Source of the DNA: a virus
Taxonomy: Duplodnaviria > Heunggongvirae > Uroviricota > Caudoviricetes
Virus record (IMG/VR): IMGVR_UViG_2671180849_000011
Strand: one strand, 5' to 3'
Length of the DNA stretch: 13,205 nucleotides
A program made the translations under genes and the position numbers. Shown here in pieces: positions 4,335-13,205 of the stretch. Position 1 is the stretch's first letter. Each line of letters starts with the position of its first letter. Below the pieces are notes generated by a model that was not told the origin of the DNA, searched no databases, and was given only the letters and a program-made list of their open reading frames with translations.

Positions 4335-5231
4335 TTATTTAAACTCTAAAATGCCTTTTTTATTTTTTCTAACATTTCTCCACAATATTTCGGGATAATC
4401 TCCGCAGGTTTTATCTAACAATATTTCGAATCCCATCCCAATAAGCTTATTTGCAAAAATAAAAACAGGTCTGGTTAAATGCCAGTATTCTTCCGGTTTC
4501 CAGATTTCACCCTCTATTTTCCCTTTATGTTGGCTTACCTCTTCTGCGGTGTAAAAATCCTCCTGAATCTTTGACAAAAGGATCGGGCGACGTTTGTTTA
4601 AATCTTTGTATTTGCTTTCCCACAGTGATCGCATTATGCCTTTAGCCTCACTCTCACCCAGGACAATCCAGCCCCCATCGGTTACATCTTTCACAGGACG
4701 GCCCCGGCGTGGCTTGTCACTAACAGCGTTAATTTGAGGCGCTTTAGTGTCTTGGGTAGGCAATTGCACCACCTTAGCCTTTTTAGCTTGCTGTGTGGCT
4801 TGTTTTGGGGCTTCTTGCGGGTGTTTCTCTTCACTACCTGCATTGCTCATAGGTTGTATTCCTTGAGCGTCACACATTTTGCAGATTTGAGAAGGAGTAA
4901 TTAACAGTTTGTAATGATTAGATTTGCCTTTACTTTTAATTACTGAAATAAGCCCGGCATTTTCCAGAGTTTTGATAGATTCAATGATTTTTCTATCACT
5001 CACACCACATATTTTTGCTAAGGTCTGCTCTGAGATAAATATTTCTTGCCCGTTTAAATGAAAACCTGCCATTTTTCCATAGATTGTTACCTCTATCAGG
5101 TCTAAATTAAATCGCTCTTTTGTTTTTCCAGTCTTTTTATTAGCAATTGTTGTTGCTACTGGTTTATCAAAAGTATACTGAATGAGGCGTTCGAAATGGG
5201 GATTAAAAACCTCCCCGTAATTACTTGCCAT
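4335..5231 (-). CDS. winged-helix DNA-binding protein (298 aa), replication-initiator-like or antirepressor-like
   Basis: ATG at 5231 preceded by GGGGGA; N-terminal wHTH-like segment ISEQTLAKICGVSDRKIIESIKTLENAGLISV; central P/Q/K/A-rich linker with KPRRGRPVK (AT-hook-like); architecture recalls lambda O-type initiators (from memory, unverified). Confidence 0.5.
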   Translation of the reverse strand: MASNYGEVFNPHFERLIQYTFDKPVATTIANKKTGKTKERFNLDLIEVTIYGKMAGFHLNGQEIFISEQTLAKICGVSDRKIIESIKTLENAGLISVIKSKGKSNHYKLLITPSQICKMCDAQGIQPMSNAGSEEKHPQEAPKQATQQAKKAKVVQLPTQDTKAPQINAVSDKPRRGRPVKDVTDGGWIVLGESEAKGIMRSLWESKYKDLNKRRPILLSKIQEDFYTAEEVSQHKGKIEGEIWKPEEYWHLTRPVFIFANKLIGMGFEILLDKTCGDYPEILWRNVRKNKKGILEFK

Positions 5232-5244
5232 AGTTCCCCCACAG

Positions 5245-5460
5245 TTATTTATTAATGTTGTTGGTGTATTTAGCCAGCTCACGCTCAAGGCGGAGACGAT
5301 TCAGTTCTAAAATTGCCGCTTCAATGTGTGGATATTCTCCTTTGTGTTTACGAATAAATGCATAAACGGAAGTTTTTCGAAAGTTACCTTTAAGCACGTT
5401 CTCGACGATTTCGTCAGTAGTCCAGTTTACCAGCTGGCTTATCGGTCCGGTTTTAGCCAT
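5245..5460 (-). CDS. hypothetical small protein (71 aa)
   Basis: ATG 5460 preceded by SD AGGAGA at 7-nt spacing; stop 13 nt before the next start; basic, possibly DNA-binding. Confidence 0.5.
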   Translation of the reverse strand: MAKTGPISQLVNWTTDEIVENVLKGNFRKTSVYAFIRKHKGEYPHIEAAILELNRLRLERELAKYTNNINK

Positions 5461-5592: not shown

Positions 5593-5742
5593 TCAGCTAT
5601 TTGCGAGATTGTCAACAATCTTTTTGTATTTATCTATCATTTTTTCTTCAAGGTTGTCGATTGCAGCTACTCCGGCTATGTAGGCAACACCGCACCACAG
5701 TACAGCCAGGTTGATGATCGCTATAGCGTCGCTCAGTTCCAC
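5593..5742 (-). CDS. small single-pass membrane protein (49 aa, GTG start), not in ORF track
   Basis: GTG 5742 preceded by GGAGG at 5-nt spacing; translation VELSDAIAIINLAVLWCGVAYIAGVAAIDNLEEKMIDKYKKIVDNLANS is one hydrophobic helix plus charged tail; stop TGA 5593-5595. Confidence 0.3.
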   Translation of the reverse strand: MELSDAIAIINLAVLWCGVAYIAGVAAIDNLEEKMIDKYKKIVDNLANS

Positions 5743-5786
5743 GTTGACCTCCGGATCTGTTTCTCCCACTATCTATAATCTTATCA

Positions 5787-5808
5787 TATTGACAACCAAT
5801 TGTCAATA
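5787..5808. promoter_or_regulatory. palindromic operator overlapping candidate leftward promoter
   Basis: Perfect inverted repeat TTGACAA (5789-5795) - CCAA - TTGTCAA (5800-5806), arms extend to 9 bp; on the - strand TTGACA, 17-bp spacer, TAAGAT; a third half-site TTGTCAAT at 5929-5936. Confidence 0.4.
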
Positions 5809-6424
5809 GGAATCATTATCATTTAGGCGAGCTATAGGTACAAACAAGTCCACAGCAAAGGGGTAAGCATTATTAATGGCCCCTACCGTGTCAAAACCAA
5901 AGTCACTTATAGCATTTATGCAATAAGATTGTCAATGGCCCACAAGGGAGGGAGAGCACTTTTTGCCTTAAGCGCTCTAAAATCGATTCTAACGCGATTT
6001 AGAGGTCAGGTAATGCAATTGCACTACTCACACAAGTTAATGCAGCCAGAAGGCCATTTAGGGGCCTTATTTTCGATTTCTGAGCGTCCTGTTACGTGTG
6101 TGCATACACGGGCGCGCGGAATCCCTCGCTTAAACGGTCCGGATTGGAAACAGAAGTCTCTTATCCGGACTCCACATTATATAGCTACGTGCTATCGCAC
6201 TACGCTACCCACACACAGGCCGACGTAGTCGGTTTAGCTGTATAGCTAAAGTCACAGAGTGACCCACACACAGATTGCCTAAAGAGTCGCTAATGCTCTT
6301 TAGGCTTTCATTTGTGGGTTAAGCTTTTCCCTTAGAAAACCTTCCCCACTCTCTGATCCCTCCCCATTCCCCTTGGGGGGTTAGGGGGGGATCTGTTGTG
6401 TGATCTATTAATTTATCTATTAGA

Positions 6425-6645
6425 GTGAGAAATTTTCAGGGGTACTAGTGAGAAATCTTCGGTAGTAGTGGTGAGAAATTCTCAGGGGTGTGGGTAGGTA
6501 TGGTGGTTAAGTAGTGAGAAATCTTCAGTAGTTAGAGGCTGTGTATCATGGGGGCAATGACTGCAAAACGGGAAAGCATGACTGTATAAACACACAGGTG
6601 TGAAAATTCTTCACAGGTTAGCGACACCGGAAAAATCTTCAGTAG
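6425..6645. repeat. iteron-like direct repeats, six copies of about 18 bp (consensus GTGAGAAATCTTCAG(G/T)(G/A)G)
   Basis: Copies at 6425-6442, 6448-6465, 6471-6488 (exact 23-bp phasing), 6514-6531, 6598-6617 (degenerate), 6630-6645; preceded by G-run GGGGGGTTAGGGGGGG 6375-6390. Confidence 0.6.
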
Positions 6646-6655
6646 TGTCTATCTG

Positions 6656-6753
6656 CATATGTGGGAAATACACCCTTATTGACCTATTTTGACTAGCAAA
6701 CCTCTCTCTTCTCTCTTTGCTCTGATTTCCTCTCATGTGTGGGAAATATGCAT
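6656..6753. repeat. second repeat family CAT(A/G)TGTGGGAAATA (two copies) flanking a CT-rich tract
   Basis: catatgtgggaaata at 6656-6670 and catgtgtgggaaata at 6734-6748; pyrimidine-rich tract 6701-6734; a related copy aaaatgtgggatata near 7047-7061. Confidence 0.45.
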
Positions 6754-7488
6754 ACCAACACCCGTTGATTTTATCAATAGCTATGTTGACCGGGCATCAT
6801 AAGTGTGGCCCCTGAGGCAGTCCATCCTTCCCTCACACAGGACAATGAATATATAAAGAACATGAAAGACTGTTCACACCAACACGCCGATAAATTGCCT
6901 GAAGAGGCTTACATGGGGTTATTGTTGTGTGGGTAATGGTGATCATGCTAACAGATTATGTTAATCAGATGTAAATTCCGATTTTGTGGTCTGCATGGAG
7001 CAAACTATACTGGTTAAATGATCAGGGGAATGACTACAAAACAATCAAAAATGTGGGATATAGCCATCTACACGTCTAATGTGCTGTGTGGGGTGTTAGT
7101 GCATGCTTACATGTAAGTCATTGATTTGAAGGGTTGGGAAAATTGCATTTAACATAATAGATCTTATCTACACTAATAAAGCGAACTACAAAATCTGATT
7201 TAAAAATCATGATCAGTGGGCACAGAATTTACGTACAGCCACCTGAATAAATAATGTGCACAACATACAGCAAAGCTTAAGAATTAACATAATAGCAACG
7301 TGGTCAGTAGTGGTGTGATATTTGAGAATTGTTAGAAGAAAAAAGGGAGGTGGGGGAGCGCCTGCCTGGCACCTCAGACGAGTTACCCATAAGCTCAAAT
7401 ACCGCTAATGGATATTTCTGACACCCACACCCAAGACCGCTTTCAGCACATAGCCATATAGCCACACAGGACCGCACAGGATGCAATT

Positions 7489-7698
7489 GTGATAACAAAA
7501 AATGGGGGTGTAATAGGGTAGGTCACCTTTCATCAAAATCACTTCTACGACGTTTCCAGAGTGATAACAAGAAAACAGGCCTCTAAGATTATCTGTGCCT
7601 CGTTTTTAGCTTTTTGTGTGGTTACCAGGTGAAGAGGAAATGTTAAAAACTGTTCATTTTATGCACAAACTAGTCAGGGTGATACCACAAAATGAGGT
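7489..7698. repeat. third repeat family GTGATA(A/C)CA-A-rich-GG, three copies
   Basis: gtgataacaaaaaatggggg 7489-7508, gtgataacaagaaaacagg 7561-7579, gtgataccacaaaatgagg 7679-7697; DnaA-box-like TTATGCACA at 7659-7667. Confidence 0.45.
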
Positions 7699-7887
7699 GT
7701 AAGAAATCCAGCTGCAGATAATCTTGCAGCCAGATTTTGCAGTTTTTTAGGGTATGTTAAATTTGACAAAAATAGAGAAAAGGCTTATTAAGCTAACTTA
7801 TTGATTTTATTAGTATTACGAAAAAGGGTTACACCCTCTCTCTTACTCTGTCAACCGGGCGGTTGTGGCATAAAACGGATTAAATCA

Positions 7888-7946
7888 ATAAATAGGCATT
7901 AAATAGGGGATAAATAGGGGTTAATTGAGGGATAAATAAAAAGGGG
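7888..7946. repeat. five tandem 11-bp phased repeats (A/T)TAAAT(A/T)GGGG
   Basis: Units start at 7888, 7899, 7910, 7921, 7932 (exact 11-bp period); last unit merges into the terminator stem. Confidence 0.55.
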
Positions 7947-7959
7947 CCGTGATGGCCCC
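7931..7959 (-). terminator. rho-independent terminator of the membrane-protein gene
   Basis: Stem GGGGCC (7943-7948) / GGCCCC (7954-7959), loop GTGAT; - strand tail TTTTTATTTATC (complement of 7931-7942); 8 nt past stop codon 7968-7970. Confidence 0.6.
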
Positions 7960-7967
7960 CTGGTAGG

Positions 7968-8498
7968 TCAGAACAGTTTTTTGCTTTTTCTCCAACTAAC
8001 GCCGCGTTTGCCTATGCTCAGCCAGCCGCCAGCGAATCGGGTACCTGCGGTAACACTAGCTCCCCTGGTACCTACATGTGCATAAATACCTGCTCCACTG
8101 CTACCACCGCTTCTACGGCTTTTTCCGCCATCGATATCAAGGAGAACACAGATCGCATTCCACCAAAAGCCGATCACCCATATTGCAAATGCTAAGCCTA
8201 AAACGCCCCAGGTGACCGCCCACCCTTCCAGACTAGTGGGGAAGTAGAAAGCATTGAGAACAGCATTTATAGGGCGGATCAGGAGAAAATCTATAAAACC
8301 AGTATCCACATGAAACGGTCCATTGCCGAACTTGCTACTGCCAATAAATAAGGTAGCAGGGTAAAAGAAGATAGCCATTGCCCAAGGGCCAATAAGCAGG
8401 ATAGTAGCCCCGAACTGTGCGGCCTCCTTAAAGAACATTTTTACTATTGCTTTAAAAAGCTTTTTGTTTTCTGATTCTTTATCTTTCTGAAATAACAT
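7968..8498 (-). CDS. polytopic membrane protein (176 aa) with Gly/Ser/Arg-rich C-terminal tail
   Basis: ATG 8498 preceded by AAGGGG; about four hydrophobic segments; own terminator; position and type fit a superinfection-exclusion or abortive-infection moron (inference). Confidence 0.6.
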   Translation of the reverse strand: MLFQKDKESENKKLFKAIVKMFFKEAAQFGATILLIGPWAMAIFFYPATLFIGSSKFGNGPFHVDTGFIDFLLIRPINAVLNAFYFPTSLEGWAVTWGVLGLAFAIWVIGFWWNAICVLLDIDGGKSRRSGGSSGAGIYAHVGTRGASVTAGTRFAGGWLSIGKRGVSWRKSKKLF

Positions 8499-8509
8499 GA
8501 CGGTACCCC

Positions 8510-8527
8510 TTTGCGAGAAGTTGAATT
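8510..8527 (-). promoter_or_regulatory. conserved leader element copy 1, 12 nt upstream of ATG 8498
   Basis: + strand TTTGCGAGAAGTTGA (8510-8524) identical to 9052-9066 at the same distance from a start codon; 13/15 match to 126-140. Confidence 0.5.
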
Positions 8528-8555
8528 TAGTTAATAACCTGTTGGACTGTTCCTA

Positions 8556-8816
8556 CTATTTATTCTTCTTAAATCTCCCATCCTCCTTTCTCTCGATATT
8601 GTGGTAGTCGGCATAGGCTTTCAGCCTTCTGTGCACGGTGGCGATCCCCACACCGAAGGTTTTAGCGATAACCTGTCGTGGTGTTCCCTCTTCAACCATC
8701 TTGTACATCTGTTCCGCTACATCCATTTGTGCGGCTATCTCCATTTGCTTTGCCTTAGCTTTAATTTCAGCTATCAGCTCTTCCCTCAGTCTCCTGATAT
8801 CTTTAGCCCCCGTCAT
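8556..8816 (-). CDS. small HTH DNA-binding regulator (86 aa)
   Basis: SD GAGGAG 3 nt before ATG 8816; N-terminal predicted coiled coil; C-terminal HTH TPRQVIAKTFGVGIATVHRRLK of the resolvase/Mor-like type (by eye). Confidence 0.6.
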   Translation of the reverse strand: MTGAKDIRRLREELIAEIKAKAKQMEIAAQMDVAEQMYKMVEEGTPRQVIAKTFGVGIATVHRRLKAYADYHNIERKEDGRFKKNK

Positions 8817-8839
8817 AAACTCCTCTCAATGCTGTTCAT
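8813..8839 (-). CDS. 8-codon upstream micro-ORF (MNSIERSL) overlapping the HTH gene start
   Basis: ATG 8839 preceded by GCGGAG; stop TGA 8813-8815 overlaps ATG 8816 (ATGA); lies in an 18-bp direct repeat that duplicates the SD-start region. Confidence 0.2.
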   Translation of the reverse strand: MNSIERSL

Positions 8840-8916
8840 AAACTCCGCTCAATCATGATTAGTAGAACATCCAGGATAGCCAGACCTATTAAAAATGCTT
8901 TGCCTCCTTTGCCCAT
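8836..8916 (-). CDS. 26-aa hydrophobic micro-ORF (MGKGGKAFLIGLAILDVLLIMIERSL)
   Basis: ATG 8916 preceded by GGAGG at 6-nt spacing, 1 nt after stop of the upstream micro-ORF; stop TGA 8836-8838 overlaps ATG of the 8-codon uORF (ATGA). Confidence 0.25.
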   Translation of the reverse strand: MGKGGKAFLIGLAILDVLLIMIERSL

Positions 8917-8917
8917 C

Positions 8918-9040
8918 TCACACCTCCACACACAGAGCTAACATCAGGGCTAACACTCCAACCACCTCAATTGCCTTAACAATGTGTGGGTGATGAAACC
9001 TGGCCTTTTGCCATGCGCTGGCACTGTTCTTGATACCCAT
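8918..9040 (-). CDS. 40-aa micro-ORF with C-terminal hydrophobic helix (track ORF extends to 9145)
   Basis: Internal ATG 9040 preceded by SD AAGGTGA at 5-nt spacing and by leader element copy 2; ATG 9145 has no SD and the N-terminal extension is low-complexity. Confidence 0.3.
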   Translation of the reverse strand: MGIKNSASAWQKARFHHPHIVKAIEVVGVLALMLALCVEV

Positions 9041-9051
9041 AACTATCACCT

Positions 9052-9069
9052 TTTGCGAGAAGTTGATTT
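9052..9069 (-). promoter_or_regulatory. conserved leader element copy 2, 12 nt upstream of ATG 9040
   Basis: + strand TTTGCGAGAAGTTGA (9052-9066) identical to 8510-8524; GCGAGAAGTTGATTT (9055-9069) is 14/15 identical to 126-140. Confidence 0.5.
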
Positions 9070-9336
9070 GTTTGTTCGGTTGGGGTGCTATCAATGATCC
9101 CCTTCCTTGATTCGAACTATAGCCGGGTAAATCACTGGAAAACATTGATATTGATCAAAAGATATCTATCACGAATGAAAAAGTTATGATAGATGATAGG
9201 AGTCGCATAGCTGCGACCTTGGCTGTGTGCCAAGCCTGCAAAGCAGGTCAGGGATGAGGTGACGTATTGATGGGATTGATAGAGGTCTGAAAATACCGTT
9301 ACCACGCTAATTATTAGAATTTATATAATCAGGATG

Positions 9337-9365
9337 TTGACAATGTGAGTAAATACTGATATAAT
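9337..9365 (+). promoter_or_regulatory. perfect-consensus sigma70 promoter (TTGACA - 17 bp - TATAAT) with AT-rich upstream region
   Basis: TTGACA 9337-9342, exactly 17-bp spacer, TATAAT 9360-9365; AT-rich 9305-9335 (UP-element-like); faces the capsid genes. Confidence 0.65.
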
Positions 9366-9373
9366 ATACAGTA
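9354..9373. promoter_or_regulatory. LexA-type SOS box overlapping the -10 element
   Basis: TACTGATATAATATACAGTA matches the E. coli-type consensus TACTG(TA)5CAGTA at all ten flanking positions with an AT-only core. Confidence 0.45.
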
Positions 9374-9508
9374 TACCGTGAATCATTTAGCGAAGGTGGT
9401 TTACCGTATTTTCCTCCAAAGTAACGGCGACCAGGTAGCGGTGCCGCCTTATAAATAACACTACCCTGATCATCGTTGAGTGGTCGATTAATTCTCCTAT
9501 TGGGCTAG

Positions 9509-9517
9509 TTATCCACA
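9509..9517 (+). promoter_or_regulatory. consensus DnaA box TTATCCACA inside the capsid-operon leader
   Basis: Exact 9-mer; also the 5' arm of an inverted repeat CCACACAG (9513-9520) / CTGTGTGG (9539-9546). Confidence 0.3.
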
Positions 9518-9845
9518 CAGTTTTCTTTTGCGGGTTTTCTGTGTGGGTAGCTATCCCGAAAGGTATTTCCCCGCTGATGTGACCGCAGCCTGAACTGATT
9601 CGGGGGAGTGCCTTTCGTGATAGTGCTCTCTAGCAACCGTAACCATGCAGTGAACTATCAGCCAACTGTTGTTGGTTTTCCCCATATGGAATAGCCCCCG
9701 CTTGGACGGTGCGGGGCTATCTCCCTCTCCTTATATCAATCCCCCTTTAGATTTCCGGCATAACTTTTCGGCCCGAGCCTGTCGTGGTTTGAGAGGTTAT
9801 ACCTGAACCCTTTGAGGGGAGTTAATTTAAATCGCAGGTGATCAA

Positions 9846-10181
9846 ATGAGAGATATGACTATCCGCACACGCGGACACATCATTTCATACGCCGCAGATG
9901 AGCAATTTAGTATTCGCGACGTTGAAGTTAAAAACAAAGTTAAGACTGAGATTCCGGCTGGCACTGTTGTTGTGGTGACTGAGGCTGGCGAGGTTGAGAC
10001 CTTCGTTAAAGCAACGCACACCGGTAAAACTCCGCTGCTGGTTGTAGAACGTGCTGAAGTTGGTGATTCCTTTATCGTTGTTGCGAACAAAGGTTGCTAC
10101 ATCAATCCGGCCTATGTGGACAAAGACGGCTTAGCCGCTGTTGTTGCTGCCAGCAATGGCGATTTGCGTGTTGCACAATAA
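9846..10181 (+). CDS. head decoration-like protein (111 aa), assignment by position
   Basis: ATG 9846 preceded by AGGTGA at 5-nt spacing; strongly biased high-expression-type codons; immediately upstream of the capsid gene, as gpD is in lambda; no sequence similarity to lambda gpD recognised. Confidence 0.5.
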   Translation: MRDMTIRTRGHIISYAADEQFSIRDVEVKNKVKTEIPAGTVVVVTEAGEVETFVKATHTGKTPLLVVERAEVGDSFIVVANKGCYINPAYVDKDGLAAVVAASNGDLRVAQ

Positions 10182-10192
10182 GGAGGTTGAAA

Positions 10193-11239
10193 ATGGCTAA
10201 GAAAGAATTCGAAGTTCGCGATCTGTGTGGTCTGATTAAAGATATCCCGCCGGATAACATGATTATTTCTGCAATGGATATCTTCAACACTACTGCTCTG
10301 TGCAATACCTTTAAATTTGAATATGACAAAGTTCGCCAGGTGAAACAAACCGCTTTCGGTCAGTATCCGCGCTACGGTGAACAGATGGCTACCATTACCG
10401 CAGATGAGCGTGAAACGGGCACGGGTGATATGGCATTCACTGCCGCATCAAGTGCTATTTATCCTTCTGACTGGCAGGGTATCCGCGTTCCTGGCAAAGA
10501 TTCCGAAGAGAATCTAGAGTCTGTAACCGCTCGTCGTGTTATTCAGCTGGGCGAAGGCTTACGCCAGACCCACGAAGAAGCACGCCAGCTTGCTCTCTTT
10601 GAGAACAAAATTATCCTCACCAAGGGTAAAGAACTGAATGTGTGCGAACTGCTGGGCGCACAGCAAACCACTTCAGAAGTGGATCTAACTCAAGATATCC
10701 TTAAACAGCTGCAGGACCTGGTTGCACTGAGCAAGGTTAAACAGCGTGGTGTCGTTCGTGCCCTGCGTGGTTTCACCCTGTTCTGCCGTGCTGAACTGTT
10801 TACCGCTATTCAGACTGATGAACTGCTCCGTAAAGTGCTGTTGTTCGGCAATCAGAACATTACCGACAAAGGTCTGATGTTCCCTGAGGATATTCTGCCG
10901 GGCTTCCCGACCTTCCGCATTCCGGGCTTAGCCCTGCGTGTGGTGCAAATGGATAGTCTGCCAGAGAATACTGCTTATCTGGTCCCACAGTTCCAGCCGC
11001 ATGCGTTAGGCGATATGGTGGGCGTTTATACTCAATTTTTCGGCCCTTGCGCTCGCAACCTGAAGCTGGCAAACGGCGCTGCACGTGAAGCTTTCATGTA
11101 TATGGAAGAGTCCAGAGGCAAACGCGAAATCTTCGTTGAATCCTCTTATGCTTTCATGAACATGATGCCTGAAGTTGTGGTTAAAGTGAGTGTTAAAAAC
11201 ACCGCCGCCGCTGCTCTGGCAAAAGCCAAGGCTAAATAA
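10193..11239 (+). CDS. major capsid protein, lambda gpE-like family (348 aa)
   Basis: ATG 10193 preceded by AAGGAGG at 6-nt spacing (track ORF starts at an upstream TTG); strong codon bias; collinear matches to lambda gpE as I recall it (FKF near N-terminus, LPENT versus LPDNT, C-terminal V-S-V); size fits. Confidence 0.6.
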   Translation: MAKKEFEVRDLCGLIKDIPPDNMIISAMDIFNTTALCNTFKFEYDKVRQVKQTAFGQYPRYGEQMATITADERETGTGDMAFTAASSAIYPSDWQGIRVPGKDSEENLESVTARRVIQLGEGLRQTHEEARQLALFENKIILTKGKELNVCELLGAQQTTSEVDLTQDILKQLQDLVALSKVKQRGVVRALRGFTLFCRAELFTAIQTDELLRKVLLFGNQNITDKGLMFPEDILPGFPTFRIPGLALRVVQMDSLPENTAYLVPQFQPHALGDMVGVYTQFFGPCARNLKLANGAAREAFMYMEESRGKREIFVESSYAFMNMMPEVVVKVSVKNTAAAALAKAKAK

Positions 11240-11243
11240 AAGC

Positions 11244-11296
11244 AAAGGGAAGAGGTGGGAGATTGTGGGTAGGTCTTTCCCTCTTCCCTTTTTTGT
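11244..11296 (+). terminator. strong rho-independent terminator after the capsid gene
   Basis: 12-bp stem AAAGGGAAGAGG (11244-11255) / CCTCTTCCCTTT (11280-11291) then T-run to 11294; begins 5 nt after stop codon. Confidence 0.65.
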
Positions 11297-11328
11297 TATC
11301 CCCGTCTTAAGTTTTTGAGGTGTCTTTT

Positions 11329-11580: not shown

Positions 11581-11654
11581 CGATAGATAGCCCTGTCTTT
11601 TTATCAGAATTCACACAGGGCCACCAAAAGATTCAATTTGGAGGCATGTTTAAT

Positions 11655-12458
11655 ATGGCTAGTGATGCTCTGACAGCTGCAAAACAAGCTGAGTCGAGAT
11701 CTCCTGCATTCACTGTTATGTGTGGGGGATATTCACAAAACAAAAATATAATGGATGGCTTCAACTATACCGATAATGTGGCTATCTTCTTTGACTCTAT
11801 CTCTGATGTCAGCTATTCGTTCCCTGTTGAGAAATCGAGCTATGCGGTCGAGGATGGCACCACCATGTCAGACCATGCCGTCATTAAAGATAAATCTGTC
11901 AGCTTTACGGGTATTATTACCTCTTCCCCTCACATTATCCGGAAAGAGAACTACATCGACCGGAACACTGATCCAGATAATCCCCGTGAATCTATGCGCC
12001 CTGCTGCCGCTGTTCAGGCACTTATGGAAATGAGAGACAAGCGCCAGCTAGTTAGCCTGGTAAGTGAAGATGCCGGACTCCTTGAGAACTTCATCATGAC
12101 GAAATGTGAAGTTAAGCGTAGCTCTTCCTCTGGCGACTGCATCACTATTGATTGCACTTTTGAAGAATTCCGCACCTTCAAGGTGAAGATGGTCGAAAAT
12201 GCCGGAGTTTTCACTAACAGTAAGAAGGTGAATAAAACACAGCAAAAGGGTGCTGTTAACAGTGCTAAAGAGGGTAGTAACGCTGGCAATGCTGCTACGA
12301 AATCTACCAGAGCTAAGCATCGCGGGGAATATGCACAGGGAGAGGCAGCGGGAAAGATTGCCGCAGGTGATAAGTCTGTCGTGTCGAATGAGTTCCACGA
12401 AACGATGATTGATAAGGCCAACATGTTGCTTGATGACATCACGGAGATCAACAAATGA
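11655..12458 (+). CDS. hypothetical protein (267 aa; 270 aa if ATG 11646)
   Basis: GGAGG 11640-11644 is 1 nt from ATG 11646 but 10 nt from ATG 11655; Ser/Thr-rich; stop overlaps next start (ATGA). Confidence 0.55.
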   Translation: MASDALTAAKQAESRSPAFTVMCGGYSQNKNIMDGFNYTDNVAIFFDSISDVSYSFPVEKSSYAVEDGTTMSDHAVIKDKSVSFTGIITSSPHIIRKENYIDRNTDPDNPRESMRPAAAVQALMEMRDKRQLVSLVSEDAGLLENFIMTKCEVKRSSSSGDCITIDCTFEEFRTFKVKMVENAGVFTNSKKVNKTQQKGAVNSAKEGSNAGNAATKSTRAKHRGEYAQGEAAGKIAAGDKSVVSNEFHETMIDKANMLLDDITEINK

Positions 12459-12913
12459 GTCCGAAAGTCCGTTGCACCATAGACAAGCGCATGATGGATA
12501 AGCTGCATAAAGAGCTCTCACAGATGGAAGGTGTAGCGGTTGGCTGGGATGACGGGAAACACTATAGCGGCCTGAATTACGCCACACTGGCAGCAATTCA
12601 TTCTGAGGGGTGGGGTGATCTGCCTAAGCGCTCCTTTATGGAATCTGCCCACGCAGCAATGCTCTATGAGAGCCTGAGACACACAAAAGCCCTGATTAAT
12701 GCAATCGTAAAGGGTGGGAGCTCTGAGGCCGTCAGGAAGCGAATAGGCAAGCGATACGCCGACATTCTGGAGACTATCCTGATTAGTGGGCAATTCAGCA
12801 ACAACAAGGTTTCCCCACAATGGGCAAGCTATAAAGGCTTCAATGATGCCATGCGCCACTATGATGATTTGATCGGTGCAATCAAATACTGGTCAAATGT
12901 GGGGAGAGGTTGA
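12455..12913 (+). CDS. hypothetical protein (152 aa), translationally coupled
   Basis: ATG 12455 overlaps upstream stop (ATGA); GGAG 8 nt upstream; no recognisable motif. Confidence 0.55.
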   Translation: MSPKVRCTIDKRMMDKLHKELSQMEGVAVGWDDGKHYSGLNYATLAAIHSEGWGDLPKRSFMESAHAAMLYESLRHTKALINAIVKGGSSEAVRKRIGKRYADILETILISGQFSNNKVSPQWASYKGFNDAMRHYDDLIGAIKYWSNVGRG

Positions 12914-12929: not shown

Positions 12930-13005
12930 TCTTTTGAGGCCGTAGTGAGGCTAATCACGGTCCGGCTTAAAAAAGACAATAGGATGTCTTTTGAGGCCGT
13001 AGTGA
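12930..13005. repeat. two copies of a 19-bp direct repeat TCTTTTGAGGCCGTAGTGA
   Basis: Exact copies at 12930-12948 and 12987-13005 (57-bp spacing), similarity extends upstream (AATAG..); 17 nt after stop of the 152-aa gene. Confidence 0.5.
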
Positions 13006-13205
13006 TACACCACAAATCAGCCCCTTTCCACTTCTTTTCTCGCGATTGGTCCCTTGTGAGAATCCTTTATCAGGTATGCATTGTCCCGTGCATGAGCGGT
13101 CGATAGAGCCAGCCTCTTTCCCGGACTGGTTAGGATTTAGTGCGCTGAGAGAGCGCCGCTATCACTGTTAGCCTGTTTATCGTTGCCTGGTTTGTGCATC
13201 ACTGC

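Follow-up and report, generated by a model that had tools for sequence, protein, structure and literature searches.

In lambdoid phages the late genes stand behind a gate that consists of a constitutive promoter (PR'), a leader RNA of 194 nt (6S) and a terminator (tR'), and that is relieved by the Q antiterminator. The CI RNA of P4, the c4 RNAs of P1 and P7 and the CA RNA of N15 are processed from constitutive leaders and enforce termination or block translation (C4 is family RF01695 in Rfam), while the put RNA of HK022 and the nut sites with their boxA and boxB are antitermination RNAs which act in cis. For satellites of virulent phages we know of very few systems in which the silencing or switching of structural genes is understood. 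Here we analyse the DNA in front of the capsid genes of a plasmid-like element that is deposited as the virus record IMGVR_UViG_2671180849_000011 (Caudoviricetes); the window means the whole stretch of 13,205 nt that was analysed. Positions 9374-9845 of the window encode a leader RNA of about 350 nt, conserved, structured and non-coding, plus a variable linker, and are transcribed from a consensus sigma-70 promoter. Judged from the sequences, the reading we prefer, to which we give a probability of roughly 40%, is that this RNA would stop transcripts short of the capsid genes as long as no trans-acting factor permits read-through.

Leaders for comparison were taken from complete plasmids, from four metagenome contigs and from assemblies reached via the capsid protein and the 111-aa protein, the product of the first capsid-cassette gene. 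The 22 distinct leaders obtained in this way fall into three clades, A, B and C. The window belongs to clade A, L026/L027 make up clade C, and the amino-acid identity of the 111-aa protein in clade B is 65%. Scans of viral and genome contigs with a pattern for the MCP (major capsid protein) as well as with the conserved motifs gave no more distant relatives, and a scan of metagenomes returned four loci, all of the same element. Since relatives were found only within this element, the covariation described below rests on three clades. The core of the leader (9397-9571) is 97-99% identical within clade A, compared with 90-93% in the adjacent coding sequence. Between clades A and B the leaders are only 35-58% identical, yet invariant blocks are present in them: the loop CCAGGUAGCGGUG, the tract AUAAAUAACACU, UUUGCGG, UGGGU.GCUAUC and AGUGCC.UU.G.GAU.GU. 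Across the relatives the length of the leader ranges from 460 to 570 nt.

The promoter (9337-9365) lies on the plus strand, like all leader elements described below, and consists of TTGACA, a 17-nt spacer, TG and TATAAT. It is the sole 12/12 match in the window and is kept in every one of the 22 distinct leaders; in clade B its -10 element reads TAAAAT. Its position would place the start of transcription at about 9371-9373, and the leader then measures about 474 nt up to the ATG at 9846 of the 111-aa gene. An earlier note on this DNA, made from the letters alone, had proposed an ORF-free leader of about 470 nt, and the distance between the promoter-derived start and ATG 9846 agrees with this. 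It had also stated that no ORF of at least 60 aa is found on either strand of 9374-9845, and indeed the longest has 43-45 aa; none of the short ORFs in the leader (26-45 aa) is conserved in clade B. To call the leader GC-rich was an overstatement, as its GC content is 48.5% against 44.6% for the whole window. Compared with shuffled sequences, the fold of the leader has z = -3.76 on the plus strand and z = -1.80 on the minus strand. A profile search (nhmmer) finds the leader RNA in one copy per element, without a second copy as in putL/putR or nutL/nutR. A late-promoter motif of at least 8 nt common to the regions upstream of the capsid and the tape-measure blocks was not found.

Six structural elements recur in the leaders: SL1, SL2, H3, H4, Hs and T, of which Hs is absent from clade B. 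Covariation was counted for SL2, H3, H4, Hs and T on the alignment of the 22 leaders. In the proposed structure 92.5% of the cells are paired, against 40-50% when the partners are slid, and nine pairs are changed on both sides, against 0-4 with slid partners. The covariation score amounts to 0.166; slid partners give at most 0.087, and none of 500 shuffles reached the observed value. As read from these alignments, the covariation is supportive evidence for the RNA structure, without being statistically decisive. Structure prediction together with this check, as the earlier note had suggested, thus shows hairpins whose pairing on the plus strand is kept through wobbles and compensatory changes, and the idea of a structured leader stands, as the leader is neither poorly conserved nor devoid of covariation.

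The two long hairpins of the leader are H3 and H4, which are directly adjacent. H3 (9502-9557) comprises 18 pairs, its 5' arm holds TTATCCACA (9509-9517) and its loop the conserved UUUGCGG. Folded as RNA it has 15 consecutive and three outer pairs (-29.7 kcal/mol, z = -7.3), and 91% of its cells are paired over the 22 leaders. H4 (9550-9624, z = -7.0) is built from the closing stem GCUAUC/GAUAGU plus CGAAAGGUAUUUCCCCG.../...CGGGGGAGUGCCUUUCG, and there is competition between its six closing pairs and the base of H3. In the lower stem of H4 100% of the cells are paired, with three compensatory pairs (G-C to A-U, A-U to G-C and again G-C to A-U). This hairpin forms in all three clades, with -29.8 to -39.6 kcal/mol on the plus strand versus -21 to -29 on the minus strand.

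The perfect DnaA box that had been noticed at 9509-9517 is an exact TTATCCACA (TTWTNCACA). The inverted repeat CCACACAG/CTGTGTGG in which it was placed is also real and even longer than described, with arms at 9496-9520 and 9539-9563 in a repeat search; its loop has 18 nt (9521-9538) and not 22 nt. At the DNA level the site could bind DnaA and thereby block or regulate transcription, or it could be a single-strand initiation signal which loads DnaB, as A sites of the 'ABC primosome' do. In such A sites a DnaA box lies in the stem of a DNA hairpin, and here the 9-mer matches the consensus exactly and is located in a stem, is kept in all 13 main leaders of clade A, and H3 is stable as DNA too, as a fold computed with parameters for DNA gives -11.4 kcal/mol on one strand and -10.2 kcal/mol on the other, z being about -5 to -6. 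However, the box is exact in only these 13 of the 22 distinct leaders; in the other nine it reads TTATCCATG (two leaders), TTATCCATA (one) or ATATCTACC (six), and it is not conserved in the sister clades, whereas the wobble pairing typical of RNA is. The changes in the box, C to U and A to G, among them C9516 to U and A9517 to G, stay paired as U·G and G·U in every variant of clades A and C. Because these pairs form only in plus-strand RNA and are mismatches in DNA or in minus-strand RNA, selection visibly preserves the RNA hairpin and not the box. In clade B, H3 reaches -22.6 kcal/mol on the plus strand versus -14.6 on the minus strand.

Moreover, at least one exact DnaA 9-mer occurs in 25 of 200 shuffles, and one box in 13.2 kb is not beyond chance. 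Other matches to TTWTNCACA are found at 7659 and 8077, and the boxes of clade B all lie outside the leader. The iterons and other DnaA-like boxes are about 2-3 kb off (6423-7667); unlike in an A site, the box in H3 is about 2.9 kb away from the iteron array (6423-6646), and its duplex in the stem carries two G·T pairs. Boxes with one mismatch are in excess in the window (14 vs 3.5 expected), but they overlap an element-wide motif, (C)TGTGTGGGT(A), with 19 matches vs 2.2 expected in the window, which is concentrated in the ORF-free part from 6000 to 7650. This motif is still enriched in clade B but is absent from the clade B leader. A DnaA site therefore appears very improbable. A roadblock site had been suggested for the leader; through the box it is, for the same reasons, not supported. 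On these comparisons the simplest account of TTATCCACA is that it belongs to the 5' arm of H3, and a DnaA function need not be invoked. A DnaA box that matches exactly can come about within an RNA hairpin, and such a match should be annotated as a replication or roadblock site only after its conservation has been checked.

The remaining hairpins upstream of the terminal one are smaller. SL1 (9373-9409) is the hairpin at the very start of the RNA. Relatives differ in its sequence, and a 5'-proximal hairpin is present in every variant of clade A, with U·G/G·U and A-U changes. In L026 and in clade B the region also folds, although differently, and because the alignment is poor here its pairs were left out of the formal count. 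SL2 (9426-9448) is a short stem of GGCG/CGCC plus CC/GG with the invariant loop CCAGGUAGCGGUG, which is identical in the three clades. All of its cells (100%) are paired, with one pair changed from G-C to C-G in clade B and one from G-C to G·U; taken alone the hairpin has no unusual stability (z = -0.69). Next comes a tract that is conserved and for the most part unpaired, UUAUAAAUAACACUACCC (9449-9466), in which AUAAAUAACACU is invariant in 22 of 22 leaders and occurs once in the window; the CUACCC of this tract could pair instead with GGGUAG at 9545-9550. The small hairpin Hs (GCCAAC-UGUU-GUUGGU, 9661-9676, followed by UUU to 9679; z = -4.1) changes within clade A from CCAAC/GUUGG to CCGAC/GUCGG, which is compensatory, and has CCGAU/GUCGG in L026.

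The structured part closes with the conserved terminal hairpin T (9688-9724, -21.3 kcal/mol), which has a terminator-like stem. Its upper stem is always paired, as CCCCGC/GCGGGG in clade A, as CUCUCC/GGAGGG in L026 and as GGAAUACUCC/GGGGGUAUUCC in clade B, where a U-run follows whose length is 7-9 depending on the variant. A terminator scan recognises T of clade B as an intrinsic terminator (15 pairs plus the T-run), at a distance of about 375 nt from the promoter, with about 120-130 nt remaining up to the ATG. In the window T has no U-run, and the same scan finds no plus-strand terminator site in the leader, so that the description of the leader hairpins as lacking U-runs was accurate. The tract CUAUCUCCCUCUCCUUAUAUCAAUCCCCCUUUAGAUUUCC at 9718-9757 is C-rich and G-poor (14 C and 4 G in the 40 nt from 9714 to 9753) and represents a candidate Rho-utilisation region. 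Rho makes use of such tracts in long untranslated RNAs, and from the composition we infer that this one would serve Rho in clade A. The rest of the region (9758-9848) is a variable linker with the ribosome-binding site AGGUGA (9836-9841) and the ATG at 9846. Some relatives (L013/L005/L029-L030 and L026) have about 70-95 nt extra between the terminal hairpin and the ribosome-binding site, aligned after window position 9782; the linker after T thus tolerates large changes in length.

How could such a leader work as a gate? In the resting plasmid state RNA polymerase would start often and would halt where the structured part ends. In clade B the stop would take place at the canonical intrinsic terminator, and in the window at the homologous hairpin 9688-9724, with the C-rich tract letting Rho end the long untranslated RNA. 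Read-through into the genes of the 111-aa protein, the major capsid protein and the later proteins would need a trans-acting factor, supplied by a helper phage or by the element itself, and its targets would be invariant loops and stems further upstream (SL2, H3, H4). We infer all three parts, the end of the transcript at T, the role of Rho in clade A and the factor which relieves termination. An attenuation or processing element was among the roles first considered for this leader, and it is the one that is favoured, by the conserved plus-strand hairpins and by the terminator of clade B. A classical self-contained attenuator is argued against, since a conserved antiterminator alternative for the 5' arm of T was not found (folds up to the T loop give differing or no partners in clades A, C and B), and the same result speaks for a trans-acting factor.

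Several points weigh against a gate. The missing antiterminator pairing with the 5' arm of T is one of them, and with no U-run after T in the window intrinsic termination there would be weak. The covariation comes from three clades with few independent events, and the structure was drawn from the same sequences. No antiterminator-type protein, including the Q family, was recognised among the scanned proteins of the element (Pfam, PHROG, NCBIfam), a scan which covered the element only. The boxA-like sequence is not significant: UGCUCUCUAGCAA at 9624-9636 has two mismatches to UGCUCUUUAACAA / CGCUCUUA, boxA matches with up to three mismatches number 5 vs 6.0 expected, and UGCUCUCUAGCAA is not kept in clade B. 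The RfaH ops sequence GGCGGTAGnnTG is absent from 9374-9845 with up to two mismatches, and GGTAGCGGTG in the SL2 loop is a partial ops look-alike only. Finally, the same facts fit an RNA with a job of its own, and on these data a gate and a stand-alone RNA are inseparable.

The stand-alone RNA is thus the main rival, and we regard it as a serious, if somewhat unlikely, reading. It would be a regulatory RNA of about 350 nt which acts in trans or on its own nascent transcripts, for immunity, copy-number control or interference with the helper, as modelled by P4 CI, P1/P7 c4 and N15 CA; the capsid genes would in that case be activated from elsewhere or once the RNA no longer acts. The promoter of consensus strength is typical of RNA genes, and the strong terminator of clade B at 120-130 nt before the ATG would fit such an RNA. 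Furthermore, variation is seen in the stems and not in CCAGGUAGCGGUG, AUAAAUAACACU and UUUGCGG, as would be expected of recognition loops, and the tolerance of the linker for insertions of 70-95 nt would fit as well. On the other hand, Rfam gives no matches for the whole window at the gathering score, and even at E values up to 10 the segments 5700-9900 and 9330-9860 and the clade B leader give chance-level hairpin matches only, none of them to C4. A duplex search against the translation starts of the element revealed no target common to clades A and B, although it returned long, loop-ridden duplexes and is as a method uninformative. No complementary word beyond chance was found in one genome of an rV5-like phage, NHEP1 (137 kb): the longest shared or complementary word has 12 nt, and shuffled leaders give 12-17 nt. 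In addition, no other sigma-70-like promoter that could serve the capsid genes lies between T and ATG 9846 in the window.

A more far-reaching proposal, which we consider unlikely as it stands, is that the leader RNA may be a helper-sensing riboregulator of a new kind, belonging to an undescribed family of plasmid-borne satellites of virulent rV5-like phages, with its invariant loops read by a protein or an RNA of the helper. The RNA would be constitutive, and recognition of CCAGGUAGCGGUG, AUAAAUAACACU and UUUGCGG would turn the terminated leader into a read-through capsid mRNA or, alternatively, would free the RNA to act in trans. If this holds true, the capsid output of the satellite would be coupled to infection by a lytic phage without an integrase or a repressor circuit. 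If the RNA is a switch, it would offer a compact and testable system of one promoter, one RNA and one terminator, would constitute a new RNA family, and could serve to study helper sensing at the level of transcription elongation.

A third possibility is that the capsid operon is transcribed straight through and that the leader acts on stability, processing or translation of the mRNA; we judge this to be quite unlikely. SL1 would then shield the message, H3 and H4 would be RNase III sites, and C-rich runs would pair with the purine-rich GAGAGG/GAGGGGAG/AGGUGA and tune translation of the first gene. The 5'-terminal hairpin, which is kept in every variant despite changes in sequence, would suit this idea, as would the lack of a U-run after T in the window. 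H4 including its closing pairs is a duplex of about 23-25 pairs, roughly the length that RNase III cleaves, and H3 has 18 pairs. CCUCUC (9724-9729) is complementary to GAGAGG (9791-9796), and a similar pair exists in clade B. However, the full intrinsic terminator of clade B is hard to square with simple read-through, and constitutive capsid protein would presumably be costly for a cell without helper. We also considered a primer like RNA II of ColE1, as GGTAGCGGTG presumably also occurs in the terminator hairpin of ColE1 RNA I. This candidate was rejected: there is no match to RNAI in Rfam, an O-like initiator and iterons are found elsewhere in the element, and the DnaA box is not conserved.

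It had further been proposed that the leader is a packaging recognition site (cos/pac), in this case for the terminase of a helper. Non-coding DNA just upstream of head genes is a common place for packaging sites, which is where the leader lies, and an element without a terminase gene must carry a site that its helper recognises. Nevertheless, the identity of the leader between clades A and B reaches only 35-58% although near-identical sequence exists elsewhere in the element, it shows no similarity to any phage DNA in our collection and shares no word beyond chance with NHEP1, and its substitutions keep the RNA pairing and not the DNA sequence. The best conserved non-coding DNA of the element is the stretch 12990-13205 + 1-200, which is contiguous on the circle and lies between the convergent ends of the two gene blocks. 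Its identity between clades A and B amounts to 97-98%, against only 35-65% in most other non-coding DNA. This stretch, too, has no match to the phage DNA in the collection. Because it is so much better conserved, a packaging role of the leader is highly improbable, and by its conservation 12990-13205 + 1-200 is the best candidate for a packaging site or another essential cis element.

The whole window of 13,205 bases is an essentially complete, circular, plasmid-like element of about 13.2 kb. Near-identical plasmids of 13.2-13.7 kb are present in seven of 5,426 complete E. coli genomes, with no chromosomal copies. E. coli 190 (NZ_CP020521) and E275a (NZ_CP035869) are strains that bear such a plasmid. 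One record (L014, NZ_CP043822.1, 39,610 bp) is a head-to-tail trimer of the element with frameshifted or decayed genes in one copy; it may exist as such, as a multimer or concatemer, or may be an artefact of assembly. On the plus strand the element encodes the 111-aa protein (9846-10181) and the major capsid protein (10193-11239), on the minus strand an O-like replication initiator (4335-5288) and a tape-measure protein (266-2392). It also codes for a Dit-like protein (11646-12458), a neck/tail-completion-like protein (12455-12913) and small helix-turn-helix proteins. Scans of its proteins revealed neither a terminase nor a portal nor an integrase, and the nearest relatives of the tail and neck genes are those of rV5-like phages (Vequintavirinae and relatives). 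For these two reasons the element is probably a plasmid-borne satellite of virulent rV5-like phages, and apparently an undescribed one, as we found no paper describing it or its leader. In protein searches neither the capsid family nor the 111-aa family was found outside this element, and no tRNA or tmRNA genes were found. In NHEP1 (L031 3576-5023) the position of the 111-aa gene, immediately upstream of the major head gene, is taken by a gene for a 'head decoration protein', and by gene position the capsid cassette is thus syntenic with the putative helper.

Further observations concern the surroundings of these genes. A strong terminator-like hairpin with a U-run directly follows the major capsid gene (11241-11297, plus strand; -28.4 kcal/mol, z = -4.5), and an intrinsic terminator at 3033-3011 (minus strand) divides the replication-side genes from a block of 129-aa, helix-turn-helix and tape-measure genes, so that both structural blocks sit behind terminators. 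Divergent from the leader promoter, a gene for a 40-aa peptide with a hydrophobic tail (MGIKNSASAWQKARFHHPHIVKAIEVVGVLALMLALCVEV) lies at 8918-9040 on the minus strand. Its ribosome-binding region, TTTGCGAGAAGTTGA, recurs before a 176-aa gene (8496-8527 and 9038-9069) and is 100% conserved in clade B. The 2.2 kb from 5800 to 7960 are free of ORFs and contain five iteron-like repeats of 23 bp (6423-6646) as well as 11-bp repeats, ATAAATAGGGG, at 7888-7931; this region is likely a replication origin plus other sites.

Taken together, the leader appears from its sequence to be an RNA which belongs to no known family but whose functional kind is known, in a satellite that is apparently undescribed, and the element as a whole is more striking than its leader. 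Among the described antitermination RNAs, HK022 put resembles it in having adjacent stem-loops, here H3 and H4, between a promoter and a terminator-like hairpin, and a boxA-like UGCUCUCUAGCAA stands after H4. This likeness is one of description. H3 and H4 together span about 120 nt and are much larger than put, the leader occurs once per element and not once per operon, and its boxA-like match lies within chance and is missing in clade B. The C4-type RNAs differ from the leader RNA in that it matches neither C4 (RF01695) nor any other Rfam family, is several times larger, gave no conserved complementarity between loop and target in the duplex search and precedes capsid genes rather than replication or antirepressor genes. 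With P4 CI, P1 c4 and N15 CA it shares the plasmid or satellite as host, a constitutive structured leader, genes which would be silent in the carrier state and a predicted termination inside the leader. The lambdoid PR'-6S-tR' gate differs in its shorter leader (194 nt versus about 350 nt here) and in that Q does not require covarying hairpins such as those found here. The element has no recognised Q-family protein, its hairpin in the window lacks a U-run, and nothing indicates a Q-binding element or a promoter-proximal pause. What the two arrangements have in common is a strong sigma-70 promoter directly upstream of structural genes (head and tail genes in the lambdoids) and a non-coding RNA that would end at a terminator before the late genes, canonical in clade B, so that read-through would be needed for their expression.

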